Below are positions 8,143 through 25,480 of a DNA stretch of 64,000 bases, piece by piece. The DNA comes from Escherichia coli (GTDB lineage Bacteria; Pseudomonadota; Gammaproteobacteria; Enterobacterales; Enterobacteriaceae), in assembly GCF_024700885.2 (NCBI RefSeq), contig NZ_CP117016.1; one strand, written 5' to 3'. Made by a program: the position numbers and the translations under genes. How positions within the stretch are numbered: the stretch's first letter is position 1; every line of letters starts with the position of its first letter. The notes beneath the pieces were generated by a model that saw nothing but the letters and a program-made list of their open reading frames with translations, was not told the origin of the DNA and did no database searches.

Positions 8143-8246
8143 TTATTCCATTAATTAAATTCGCACTGGATAGAAGGTACTACCTCTCACAAAGTAGCAA
8201 AGTTCAACTGGCTATGCGGCGTTAATCGGAATGCATGGTGGAATGT

Positions 8247-9493
8247 TGAGGTGTACTGGCAATAGCGGACACTACCATTTGTTCTTTTTTTAAGCAGCCA
8301 TCTGATGATATTTTTCCCTGAAGGCTGCCGGGGAGATATTCCCCAGACGAGAGTGACGACGCTGACGATTGTAGAAAATCTCAATGTATTCCCGTATTAC
8401 TGAGATGGCTTCATCCCGGTTATTAAAACGATAGTGGCTCAGGCTCTCATTTTTCAGCGTTCCCCAGAAGCTTTCCATCGGAGCGTTGTCGTAACAGTTA
8501 CCTTTACGCGACATTGATGTTTTCAGACCAAACTGCTCCTGTATGACACGGTAATCGTATGCGCAGTACTGTGAACCTCGATCAGAGTGGTGGATTAGCC
8601 CGGCAGGTGGGCGCTGGCTCCTGAGCGCCATAAACAGGGCTTTACCTGTCAGCTCTTTTGTCATGCGCTCTCCCATGGCGTAGCCGACAATTTCGCACGT
8701 ATAAACATCTTTGATGCCAGCGAGGTACAACCATCCCTCCTGTGTGGCAACATACGTCAGGTCCGCCACCCAGACCTGATTTGGTGCTGTAGGAGCGAAC
8801 GTCTGGTTCAGCAGATTTGGCGCAACTGGCAGATTGTGGTTCGAGTTCGTAGTCGCTCTGAACTTGCGTTTCTGCTTACAGCGTAGCCTTAGCTCCTTAC
8901 GAAGACGTGCCAGTCGGTCACGACCAACGATGATGCCATTCTCTGCCAGCTCCGTCTGGAGCTGCCGGGTTCCATATGTTTCGCGAGTGCGGATATGCGC
9001 CACCTTAATCTCCAGTTTTAGCCGCTCATCACTTTGTTTTCTGTCTGAGGGTTCATGCTGTACCCAGTTGTAATAACCGCTCCTGGATACACCAAATACC
9101 TGACACATCGCTTCAATGGGAAATTGTTGTCGCCATTGTTCGATTAACGCGTATTTTTCAGCGACTCCTGTGCAATTTAATATATCTCGCTCAAGGCGAG
9201 CTTCATTTAACGCCTTACGCAGTTGCAGAATTTCAGATTCCAGTTCAGCCACCGTGCGGGAACCAGGAGTACCGAGCCCTTTTCTGGCGGCGGTAACCCA
9301 TTGTCCTAAAGTGCCTTCAGGAAGAGATAATCGGGAAGCACCTTCACTGATCGAAAGTTGATTTTCAAGAACCGTTCTGACAGCTTCGGCTTTGAACTCT
9401 TTAGAGTAACGTTGGGTTTTTCTGCTCATTATTAGCTCCTTCTGATGCCATTCTATTTCAGGAAGGAGTGTCCGTTAAACTCAGGCTACCTCA
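8247..9493 (-). mobile_element. IS3-family insertion sequence (IS600-like), about 1.25 kb
   Basis: Imperfect terminal inverted repeats TGAGGT...CGGACACT at both ends flanking the transposase ORF. Confidence 0.7.
8290..9429 (-). CDS. IS3-family transposase, OrfA and OrfB fused in one 379-aa frame
   Basis: OrfA-like HTH and leucine zipper (LQLRKALNEARLERDIL) continuous with DDE OrfB (DLTYV, HSDRGSQY, GNCYDNAPMESFW). Confidence 0.85.
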   Translation of the reverse strand: MSRKTQRYSKEFKAEAVRTVLENQLSISEGASRLSLPEGTLGQWVTAARKGLGTPGSRTVAELESEILQLRKALNEARLERDILNCTGVAEKYALIEQWRQQFPIEAMCQVFGVSRSGYYNWVQHEPSDRKQSDERLKLEIKVAHIRTRETYGTRQLQTELAENGIIVGRDRLARLRKELRLRCKQKRKFRATTNSNHNLPVAPNLLNQTFAPTAPNQVWVADLTYVATQEGWLYLAGIKDVYTCEIVGYAMGERMTKELTGKALFMALRSQRPPAGLIHHSDRGSQYCAYDYRVIQEQFGLKTSMSRKGNCYDNAPMESFWGTLKNESLSHYRFNNRDEAISVIREYIEIFYNRQRRHSRLGNISPAAFREKYHQMAA

Positions 9494-9575
9494 TTGGTTC
9501 CCACTACTTATTTGGTGGACACCACTTTGTCTAATTCGTCAGATTCTGACCAGACGGTTCAGGCTGTACGCTTAC
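9494..9575. repeat. 82-bp IS66-family terminal fragment (solo end), identical to 17521-17602
   Basis: Ends in revcomp GTAAGCGTACAGC; identical to the left end of the IS66 copy at 15315-17602. Confidence 0.75.
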
Positions 9576-9609: not shown

Positions 9610-10554
9610 TCAAGGGTACGGGTCCGCTTCGTTTGATTTGCGTGTTTTTAACAATTTTAAAACCCAGACATACTGTTCCGGATGTGGCCCCACCAAAATT
9701 TCCACTGTTTTGTTCATTTGTCGGGCAATCATTTTATTGTCCGCGCTGGCAATGCAAGCATCCATTGGTGGCCGAATTTCAATAGTCAGGAGATGTTTTT
9801 TTTCATCATAAACCGGGAAAAGTGGTATAATCATAGCCTGACTGATGTTCATCAGACGTCCAATGATTGGTAATGTCGCTTTATAGGTCGCAAAAAAATC
9901 AGCAAATTCACTGTATTCAGGACCATGATCCTGATCTGGGAGGTAATATCCCCAGTATCCCTGGCGTACTGACTGAATAAATGGTTTTATCCCATCCTCC
10001 CGGGCATGTAAGCGCCCCCCGAATTTACGCCGTACTGAATTCCAGACATAATCAATCACTGGATTTCGTTGCTGATGAAACATGGCGGCCATTTTTTTTC
10101 CCTGAGCTGCCAGCAACATTGCAGGAATATCCACGCTCCAGCCATGGGGAACCAGAAAAATCACATTTCTATTATTGTGTCGAATTTCCTCAAGAATTTC
10201 GAGGCCTTTCCAGAACACTCGTTTCTGGAACTTTTCCGGACCACGAATTGCCAGTTCTGCCATCATCACTATGGATTGCAATGCTGTGGCAAACATTTTG
10301 TCGACAATTATTTCCCGTTCTGTATCACTCTTTTCTGGGAAACAAAGCGATAAATTAATCGTCGCCCTGCGACGAGCTTTTTTGCTCAATCTGCCCACCC
10401 AACGCCCTATTTTTGCCAAGACAGGATCTCTGAATGAAGGGGGAAACATTGAAATACCTGCAATCATTCCCAAAAGGAACCATGTAGACCAGTAAACAGG
10501 GGAAAGGTAATTTTTCTTAAATTCAGGAATAAACTCAGATTTATATTTTTTCAT
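9610..10554 (-). CDS. Lipid A secondary acyltransferase, LpxM/MsbB family (msbB2-like paralog)
   Basis: Lauroyl/myristoyl acyltransferase motifs (FLVPHGWSVD, YLPDQDHGPE); virK fragment immediately upstream as in shf-virK-msbB2 modules. Confidence 0.8.
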   Translation of the reverse strand: MKKYKSEFIPEFKKNYLSPVYWSTWFLLGMIAGISMFPPSFRDPVLAKIGRWVGRLSKKARRRATINLSLCFPEKSDTEREIIVDKMFATALQSIVMMAELAIRGPEKFQKRVFWKGLEILEEIRHNNRNVIFLVPHGWSVDIPAMLLAAQGKKMAAMFHQQRNPVIDYVWNSVRRKFGGRLHAREDGIKPFIQSVRQGYWGYYLPDQDHGPEYSEFADFFATYKATLPIIGRLMNISQAMIIPLFPVYDEKKHLLTIEIRPPMDACIASADNKMIARQMNKTVEILVGPHPEQYVWVLKLLKTRKSNEADPYP

Positions 10555-10618
10555 TATTTAGTGCGAATGCCTCTACCAAAATTATCATTACTGTTTTATT
10601 CAGAGAATACATCAAACC

Positions 10619-11233
10619 TTAATTTAAATTCTGATGTTCTGAGTGTACAGGATATGCATCCAAAGAGCGGATAGTAGTTTCATGGATATAATCCAGCAAA
10701 GCGTATCGTTTTCGGTACTCAGAGCGTTTTTTACTGGCTATATCGCTTAGCGGCTTTCGAATCACCTGGGTTGGTAATCTGTACCAGTCACCACAGGTTT
10801 TTCCTGCTACAGACTCCCAGAAATCACTATAGACCGCAACAAAGGTTTTGCGTTTCTGATACCAGTATCTCAATTGCCGGAAAACATGACTGTGCTCACT
10901 GACTGCCAGACACTCAGAGATATTGCAAGCTTTCATCAACGCACAAAATGCTTCAAAAATAATCCGTTTTGGGAAAATCCCATAACAGGCCCGGGTTGCG
11001 CACCGAATAACATCAGGTCCGGTATTTTTAGGGGCTCCCTGTAATCCGCCAATAAAAGCAATGTGTCCATTTTGAGTCAGAATGACTGAAAATGTTAACC
11101 GGGCAATAACTGTTTTATTGTAAAACAATGACAACATCAACTCTCCTTCCCGGTCAAAACCACTGGGAGAACACTGGATATCAAAATTCTCTCCATCTTT
11201 CCCGATGAATTGGACTAATGATACCGATTTTTG
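10619..11233 (-). pseudogene. virK: virK-like (DUF535) gene, C-terminal part only, cut by IS1
   Basis: Open frame runs from the IS1 boundary (...FIGKDGENFDIQCSP...) to the stop at 10619; N-terminal half absent. Confidence 0.55.
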
Positions 11234-11288
11234 GGTAATGCTGCCAACTTACTGATTTAGTGTATGATGGTGATTTTAAGGTGCTTGC

Positions 11289-11564
11289 GTGGCTTCCATT
11301 TCCATCAGATGTCCTTCCTGCTCCGCTACTGAAGGCGTGGTGCGTAACGGCAAAAGCACTGCCGGACATCAGCGCTATCTCTGCTCTCATTGCCGTAAAA
11401 CATGGCAACTACAGTTCACTTACACCGCCTCTCAGCCCGGTACGCACCAGAAAATCATTGATATGGCCATGAATGGCGTCGGATGTCGCGCCAGTGCACG
11501 CATTATGGGCGTTGGCCTCAACACGGTTTTACGTCACTTAAAAAACTCAGGTCGCAGTCGGTAA
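11289..11564 (+). CDS. insA: IS1 InsA
   Basis: [40 protein letters not shown]... Confidence 0.9.
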
Positions 11565-11986
11565 CCTCGCGCATACAACCGGGCAGTGATGTGATTGTCT
11601 GCGCTGAAATGGACGAACAGTGGGGCTACGTCGGTGCTAAATCACGTCAGCGCTGGCTGTTTTACGCGTATGACAGGATACGGAGGACGGTTGTGGCGCA
11701 CGTCTTCGGTGAACGCACTCTGGCCACACTGGAGCGTCTTCTGAGCCTGCTGTCGGCCTTTGAGGTCGTGGTATAGATGACGGATGGCTGGCCGCTGTAT
11801 GAATCACGCCTGAAGGGAAAGCTGCACGTTATCAGCAAGCGTTACACTCAGCGCATTGAGCGACATAATCTGAATCTGAGACAACATCTGGCAAGGCTGG
11901 GACGGAAGTCACTGTCGTTCTCAAAATCGGTGGAGCTGCATGACAAGGTCATCGGGCATTATCTGAACATAAAACACTATCAGTAA
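11483..11986 (+). pseudogene. insB: IS1 InsB frame with premature stop (TAG at 11774-11776)
   Basis: Copy 2 reads ...VVIWMTDGW (TGG); copy 1 reads ...VVV(stop)MTDGW (TAG). Confidence 0.85.
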
Positions 11987-25108: not shown

Positions 25109-25227
25109 ACACTCTGCCAGGGGAAATGCCTGATTACATTGCGTTAACCAACTGAAAACATGACACAAACACCTCATGCCCCTCCTGTTTCTCTTGCGTG
25201 ACTGCTCTGCTGTTAATAGAATAAAAC

Positions 25228-25263
25228 GATCGATAAAACAGGTATCGATCGTTACTATCGATC
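25228..25263 (+). promoter_or_regulatory. Three clustered GATC (Dam) sites in the flu leader: probable OxyR/Dam phase-variation switch
   Basis: GATC at 25228, 25247 and 25260, about 220 bp upstream of the flu ATG. Confidence 0.6.
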
Positions 25264-25480
25264 GTTTATAGTGGTTAATGGTCTGCGAAAAGGCAGCTGA
25301 ATCTCTTCATCATGCAGAACGGAATTGCACACAACGGACTGATACTTCTCTGGCGGATGAGAGAGGGGAAGCATTTATGTCCGGGAAAAACCACTTTATC
25401 TGACCATGCTGTTTTGTACCTGCCGGTATCCACATTTGTGGGTACCGGCTTTTTTATTCACCCTCTGTAAGGAAAAGCTG

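Follow-up and report, generated by a model that had tools for sequence, protein, structure and literature searches.

An IS600 copy with a single transposase frame

The window analysed here is a 64,000-nt stretch of an Escherichia coli contig (NZ_CP117016.1, assembly GCF_024700885.2). Positions 8247-9493 on its minus strand are occupied by a 1247-bp copy of IS600, the sole IS600 sequence within the window. IS600 is an IS3-family insertion sequence of 1264 bp that was originally described from Shigella sonnei. Members of the family transpose by a copy-out, paste-in route via a circular intermediate. End-to-end alignment with the 1264-bp IS600 reference of S. sonnei 53G revealed one 17-bp gap and four substitutions, corresponding to an identity of 98.3% when the gap is counted and of ~99.7% for the nucleotides outside it. 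This deletion derivative is referred to as IS600-delta17 (delta17). The first-pass annotation had placed an IS3-family element at these positions and suspected it to be somewhat shorter than IS600. Its coordinates match the element ends exactly, and the alignment bears out the difference in length (1247 versus 1264 bp).

The element is bounded by TGAGG...CCTCA. Its 30-nt terminal inverted repeats, IRL (9464-9493, minus strand, beginning 5'-TG) and IRR (8247-8276, minus strand, terminating CA-3'), agree with each other at 20 of 30 positions and are each identical to those of the reference. Both size and ends fall within the IS3-family range (1.2-1.55 kb, imperfect repeats with 5'-TG and CA-3'), and the near-identical DNA and ends make the copy an IS600 isoform. 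A promoter-like site was predicted in the IRL by a consensus scan only (9450-9478, minus strand; TTAACG, a 17-nt spacer and TAGAAT, 9 of 12 matches); a weak promoter in this position is usual for the IS3 family (PMC3219604). Members of the family generate a 3-4 bp target duplication, but the flanks of the window copy differ, with CAA on the IRL side (9494-9496) and ACA on the IRR side (8244-8246), both read in the IS orientation. Because no duplication accompanies these flanks, the window copy was regarded as a recombinant between IS600 copies and not as a simple insertion. Other IS600 copies do carry a 3-bp duplication (CTG/CTG in L001 and ACC/ACC in L004). The missing duplication is explained by later recombination rather than by a different transposition mechanism.

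The interior is occupied by one ORF (379 aa and a stop codon), called at 8290-9429 on the minus strand. Its product corresponds to native OrfAB (385 aa) in which N takes the place of KKSNSVF. Pfam domains assigned to the protein were HTH_Tnp_1 (residues 3-75), HTH_21 (134-190) and rve (214-312), with E-values from 1e-12 to 6e-26, and rve_2 and rve_3 were matched as well. As in other IS3-family transposases, an N-terminal helix-turn-helix (HTH) is followed by a leucine-zipper-like coiled coil and then by a C-terminal DDE domain of the RNase-H fold with K or R seven residues past the E. The triad, located by invariant columns of the homologue alignment, is intact and consists of D223 (8761-8763), D283 (8581-8583) and E319 (8473-8475), all on the minus strand, and K326 (8452-8454, minus strand) lies seven residues past E319 in a nearly invariant column (at least 90%). 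The frame thus runs from the OrfA HTH and leucine zipper into the DDE domain, as had been noticed at first pass. One substitution, R156Q in the YGxRR motif of HTH_21 (8962-8964, minus strand), is specific to the haplotype of the window; R or K occupies this position in 11 of 11 other aligned proteins. In RefSeq, the product of an identical copy (WP_000088351.1) is named only 'IS3 family transposase', a generic label that conceals a lesioned IS600.

AlphaFold models were built from a 12-sequence alignment for native OrfAB (mean pLDDT 85.5) and the window protein (83.1), and both adopted the same fold. The native model resembled IstA, TnsB, Mu and retroviral integrase structures, and a search for a solved structure by sequence match found none. 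The deletion maps to the end of the long helix past the HTH, which spans residues 60-91 in native OrfAB versus 60-84 in the window protein, and the next helix is shorter as well. The zipper retains its four d-position residues (L63, L70, A77 and L84), whereas the residues past L84 are gone. In ISSen4, a more distant member, this segment is ~7 aa shorter. Since all four d-position residues are retained and the ISSen4 region is shorter, the loss of six residues might be tolerated. Published work on related elements gives reasons to expect the opposite by analogy: point mutations in the fourth zipper heptad of IS2 abolish binding and transposition (PMC3219604), and in IS911 the frameshift-associated pause promotes cis action of the transposase (PMC5009743), so that the fused protein may be impaired on either count.

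Loss of the frameshift cassette

The window copy departs from the usual organization of the IS3 family, in which two overlapping ORFs (orfA in phase 0 and orfB in phase -1) are joined by programmed -1 frameshifting at A6G or A7, with a structured segment downstream. Here there is a single ORF, and only AAA is left of the A7 run. The family is the classic example of programmed frameshifting as a brake on transposition. The S. sonnei 53G reference is annotated with such a frameshift and differs from the window copy in both length and frame, being longer and two-framed.

The gap corresponds to IS positions 319-335 of the reference, where the bases AAAAGCAACAGCGTATT are missing from the window copy. 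Read in the orfA frame, this part of the reference (TTA AAA AAA GCA) presents the heptamer A_AAA_AAA, which is followed by a 6-nt spacer and a hairpin formed by GCGUAUUUU...AAAAUACGC. The deletion took out the whole spacer together with four A's of the seven-base slippery heptamer and seven bases of the 9-nt hairpin 5' arm. The junction, TTAAA|TTGCAC, lies between 9176 and 9175 (feature 9172-9179, minus strand) and creates a new codon 85, AAT (Asn). A folding comparison identified the orphan 3' arm of the former frameshift-stimulating hairpin, AAAATACGC, at 9149-9157 on the minus strand. The hairpin folding energy was -12.5 kcal/mol for the reference versus -2.1 kcal/mol for the delta17 copy, and z-scores of the 91-nt segment against its shuffles were -3.25 and 0.03, respectively, the latter being no better than shuffled sequence. 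Stimulators of the IS3 family start 4-10 nt past the motif and require at least 7.6 kcal/mol for unfolding (PMC4066793). The reference hairpin begins 6 nt past A7, and the reference cassette follows both rules. Rfam contains no family for the IS600 frameshift element.

Aligning the copy to reference IS600, as had been suggested at first pass, located the deletion at the slippery site, and the idea that a small deletion had taken out the frameshift window was borne out by the 17-bp gap across A7, spacer and hairpin 5' arm. Because 17 equals 2 modulo 3, the deletion is equivalent to a -1 shift and places orfB in frame with orfA. No stop is left for orfA, and therefore the 100-aa OrfA cannot be made. 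The alternative that the fused frame is native to this lineage does not agree with the comparison: the IS600 reference is two-framed, the spacing of the segment is constant in ten homologues down to 32% identity, which keep the full-length region, and the gap occurs in the window protein alone. A microhomology origin was considered for the deletion and set aside, as no repeat at the end points could be seen by eye in the alignment, in contrast to the 80-bp deletion described below, which lies between 7-nt repeats. Read at the level of sequence, the window element is an IS600 from which the recoding cassette has been deleted and which encodes only a shortened OrfAB fusion, with both ends intact.

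In native IS600, most ribosomes would complete orfA to yield the 100-aa (11-kDa) protein of HTH and leucine zipper, and a minority, helped by the hairpin 6 nt downstream, would slip by -1 on A_AAA_AAA to yield the 385-aa OrfAB transposase. In delta17, every translation from the orfA start would yield a 379-aa OrfAB-like protein, with a predicted mass of 43 kDa, whose zipper helix is six residues shorter at its C-terminal end, and OrfA would not be produced. Up to OrfAB-only translation, this predicted course can be read directly from the two arrangements of frames.

Distribution and genomic context of the delta17 allele

To follow the allele, a 54-nt junction-centred probe, which is unable to seed on full-length copies, was run against 5426 complete E. 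coli genomes (Shigella chromosomes excluded). The delta17 junction was found at 468 places in 460 genomes (8.5%), with at most 2 per genome and a single copy in ~453 of the 460 carriers, which span unrelated E. coli lineages. Since the exact junction occurred in these 460 complete genomes and on 29 contigs of a metagenome scan, delta17 is no assembly artefact. Two delta17 haplotypes were distinguished, one equal to the Shigella reference save for the gap and retaining R156, and that of the window with four more changes including R156Q. The exact junction was absent from a scan covering one genome per species, and a literature search found no paper describing the delta17 allele of IS600. In a plasmid search, the lpxM junction described below was present in four records, all of them delta17 and at least one with a chromosome-type lpxM context, and no full-length IS600 was found at this junction.

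Exact-protein look-ups with three variants covered 83 contigs, and the 30 distinct places listed all lay at one neighbourhood, with the shf-capU-virK-lpxM cluster, or IS1-cut remnants, on the IRL side. On this side of the window copy, an lpxM (msbB2-like) paralogue of 314 aa (9610-10554) is accompanied by a VirK (DUF535) fragment (10619-11140) that is cut by IS1 (insA, 11289-11564). The lpxM/VirK region (9610-11776) is what remains, here on the chromosome, of a cluster (shf-capU-virK-msbB2) that is familiar from virulence plasmids of Shigella.

Across the complete E. coli set, the IRL/lpxM-side junction was present in 487 genomes and the junction of the IRR with a BCCT transporter in 1494, the latter being about three times as many genomes as carry delta17. 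Two sampled genomes held a full-length frameshifting IS600 at the BCCT-side junction (L008:2764-4027 and L009:2764-4027), and its left flank was an ISEc52 remnant by fec genes.

Among 35 assembled-genome copies examined, the right flanks were of three kinds (BCCT, Dcu-type transporter and one other), and a 3-bp target duplication was absent from all three configurations. E. coli SUISSEKPC3NDM5 contains two delta17 copies (1,684,112 and 1,707,479; L006 and L071) because a 23.4-kb segment has been tandemly duplicated. The duplicated segment covers shf-lpxM, IS600-delta17, BCCT, IS3, IS1 and fec. An IS600 3' remnant is present at the Dcu junction of this genome, and the Dcu-flanked form is therefore explained as a deletion by homologous recombination. 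Isolate CB209 also has two delta17 copies (L007, L010 and L074). The copy seen is Dcu-flanked and lies in an integrase-bearing island near phoH, and we presume that the second occupies the native locus; the extra copy in this second two-copy genome probably came with an imported island. The island contains fec, OXA-1, aadA1 and cat, a gene content that, as we take it, resembles the Shigella resistance locus island. Other genomes with the Dcu-flanked form (L021-L030) were taken as S. flexneri. The presence of this form in the CB209 island and in S. flexneri-type genomes indicates that delta17 moves between genomes inside a larger mobile island. In E. coli AR_0013 (NZ_CP032204.1, L073), the same lpxM and BCCT flanks enclose a 1261-bp IS600 with intact A7, a 3-bp deletion and different substitutions. 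The IS interior at this locus has probably been exchanged by gene conversion with other copies.

The first-pass annotation had proposed that a constitutive fusion could be either hyperactive or a dead end. An active and possibly hyperactive protein, freed of the frameshift bottleneck and of an OrfA inhibitor, would cause excision, circle formation and local rearrangements, as do engineered one-base fusions of IS3, IS911, IS2 and IS150. Engineered frame fusions are indeed active and make OrfAB as the main product (PMC3219604, PMC2909936), and delta17 has retained both ends, the promoter-like site in the IRL and the DDE triad. Its locus has also been rearranged, with three right flanks and a tandem duplication. 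However, the right-flank variants are accounted for by the pre-existing IS600 remnant at the Dcu junction, nearly all carriers have one copy, and the 25-nt left flank, which belongs to the lpxM paralogue, was identical in 34 of 34 assembled-genome copies with an intact IRL.

Metagenome copies gave a less uniform picture. The left flank was canonical in 21 of the 26 contigs on which it was present at full length and differed in five, and three delta17 copies were disrupted. On one 1403-bp contig (L068), delta17 at 110-1356 is bounded by a perfect AAC/AAC duplication downstream of sat, as would be expected of a copy that had moved. Yet the complete genome of strain N32 (L070) holds a full-length IS600 at the same left junction, with three diagnostic substitutions common to both, and L068 was accordingly downgraded as evidence of transposition. 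A chimeric short-read assembly or a product of gene conversion is the simplest explanation for L068; as the one remaining hint of mobility, the contig could possibly represent a real second site. Disrupted copies and the neutral substitutions reported next also speak against hyperactivity, which we regard as quite improbable. Of the two first-pass alternatives, hyperactivity gives way to the lack of spread and the constant left flank, whereas the comparative data favour a dead end.

Selection on the fused frame was assessed in 51 full-length delta17 copies. Of their variable sites, 20 were nonsynonymous and 8 synonymous; with available nonsynonymous sites outnumbering synonymous ones 3.3-fold, dN/dS is ~0.76, in a sample biased against variation because part of it was fetched by exact protein. 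This value is compatible with neutrality, and nothing in the substitution pattern suggests that the ORF is kept by selection. These figures bear on whether the host has co-opted the fused protein, which would then be kept by selection and could, for instance, bind IS600 ends or OrfAB in a dominant-negative manner. The frequency of the allele (8.5% of complete genomes, in unrelated lineages), an ORF that is intact in most copies and independent frame-fusing deletions in other IS600 copies would all fit such a role. A nonsynonymous/synonymous ratio near the neutral expectation does not, and neither do the disrupted copies, the change of a conserved residue in the window haplotype (R156Q) or the different, non-fused allele at the same locus in AR_0013. 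Co-option is therefore considered highly improbable.

Delta17 could also have roughly wild-type low activity, or be mobilised in trans by full-length IS600, in which case the lack of new copies would be due to the generally low activity of IS600 in E. coli and to the limited time available. The behaviour of wild-type IS600 is in line with this possibility, having a median of ~2 places per non-Shigella E. coli genome, and roughly 1000 genomes have a full-length copy fixed at the BCCT junction that delta17 occupies. Because wild-type IS600 itself spreads little in these hosts, the contrast between its spread and that of delta17 is weak. The intact inverted repeats and the retained zipper d-position residues of delta17 point in the same direction. 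On the other hand, a rise in OrfAB translation from a few percent to 100% should exceed wild-type activity if the protein works, and delta17 is the only IS600 sequence in many carrier genomes, the ST648 genome NZ_CP008697.1 among them, and is still single there. Moreover, IS600 has expanded in Shigella (PMC7373316), but delta17 occupied one neighbourhood in all S. flexneri-type genomes read. Low or trans-supported activity thus appears rather unlikely.

Probable fate of delta17 and other lesions in the frameshift window

Taken together, the single locus, the lack of duplications, the neutral substitutions and the right flanks explained by recombination indicate that delta17 lacks hyperactivity and has most likely reached a dead end. 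We consider it probably crippled, persisting as an island passenger and recombination substrate (probability roughly 0.7), and we infer its inactivity from the absence of spread in the sequences compared. The crippling may have one or more of three causes: zipper and linker are shortened, OrfA is no longer made, and the frameshift pause that favours action in cis is gone. The element would then stay at the one locus tied to the lpxM paralogue, by vertical inheritance or by carriage in larger islands. Its visible genomic role would be to recombine homologously with other IS600 copies, leading to adjacent deletions and duplications.

Compared with the IS600 reference, delta17 has the same inverted repeats, promoter region, OrfA N-terminus and OrfB DDE domain; it differs in having one ORF instead of two, no OrfA and, at the window site, no target duplication. 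Single-ORF transposases characterize the IS481 family. Some IS1447-like relatives within the IS3 family are likewise translated without slippage (PMC6211511). Both groups resemble delta17 in that one long ORF encodes the HTH, zipper-like and DDE parts of the transposase, but theirs is a native architecture conserved in the lineage, whereas delta17 is a recent lesion in a lineage that uses -1 frameshifting. The engineered OrfAB fusions of IS911, IS2 and IS3, obtained by insertion of one base in the A6G window, share with delta17 OrfAB as sole product and the absence of OrfA (PMC2909936, PMC3219604). In these constructs, however, the OrfAB sequence is unchanged and active, whereas delta17 has lost six residues and the hairpin and shows no sign of spread. 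Quiet at one locus in about 1 in 12 sequenced E. coli genomes and also present in S. flexneri-type genomes, delta17 is a natural counterpart of the hyperactive laboratory fusions. It could be used to learn whether IS600 is limited by expression level only or also requires OrfA, the pause in translation and an intact zipper end. The allele can further serve as a stable marker of the island with the lpxM paralogue and the BCCT transporter.

Lesions in the same 20-80 nt region were found in other IS600 copies as independent events with other end points. A 14-bp frame-fusing deletion (delta14) on the EIEC pINV plasmid CP119444 (L004:1501-2750) encodes 380 aa and belongs to the copy with the ACC/ACC duplication. 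A delta14-specific probe matched none of the RefSeq complete E. coli genomes, and this allele is therefore rare. Another frame-fusing deletion (delta80, protein P0057, 358 aa) lies between 7-nt GCGTTAA repeats. Two further deletions are an out-of-frame one of 13 bp (delta13, L005:1501-2751) and the 3-bp one of AR_0013 (delta3, L073:1045-2305), which keeps the A7 run and was found through the span lengths of delta80-probe matches. In addition, a 4-nt substitution cluster in one of the two full-length copies at the BCCT-side junction (L008:2764-4027) weakens the hairpin to -4.8 kcal/mol. With delta17 and IS911-like/IS600 chimeras included, seven kinds of independent lesion were recorded in the IS600 recoding window.

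In the annotated transposases P0071 and P0073, a foreign IS3-family OrfA N-terminus is joined to IS600 OrfB at the frameshift window. The N-terminal OrfA part of P0073 is presumably IS911-like. These chimeras suggest recombination between different insertion sequences at the shared slippery region. ISSfl10 (376 aa, 94% identical) was tried as a further fusion and rejected, as its shorter length reflects a 9-aa deletion in the catalytic domain and the frameshift region is kept.

On a broader reading, the A7 run and hairpin would form a mutational hotspot that repeatedly converts IS3-family copies into fixed, non-mobile or self-limiting fused forms; we regard this generalization as unlikely. One possibility is that fused proteins dampen the remaining active IS copies. 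Elsewhere in the window, an Rfam match to IS102 RNA (RF00124) was recorded at 25226-25462 on the plus strand with 74.6 bits, above the gathering score, and is unrelated to IS600-delta17.
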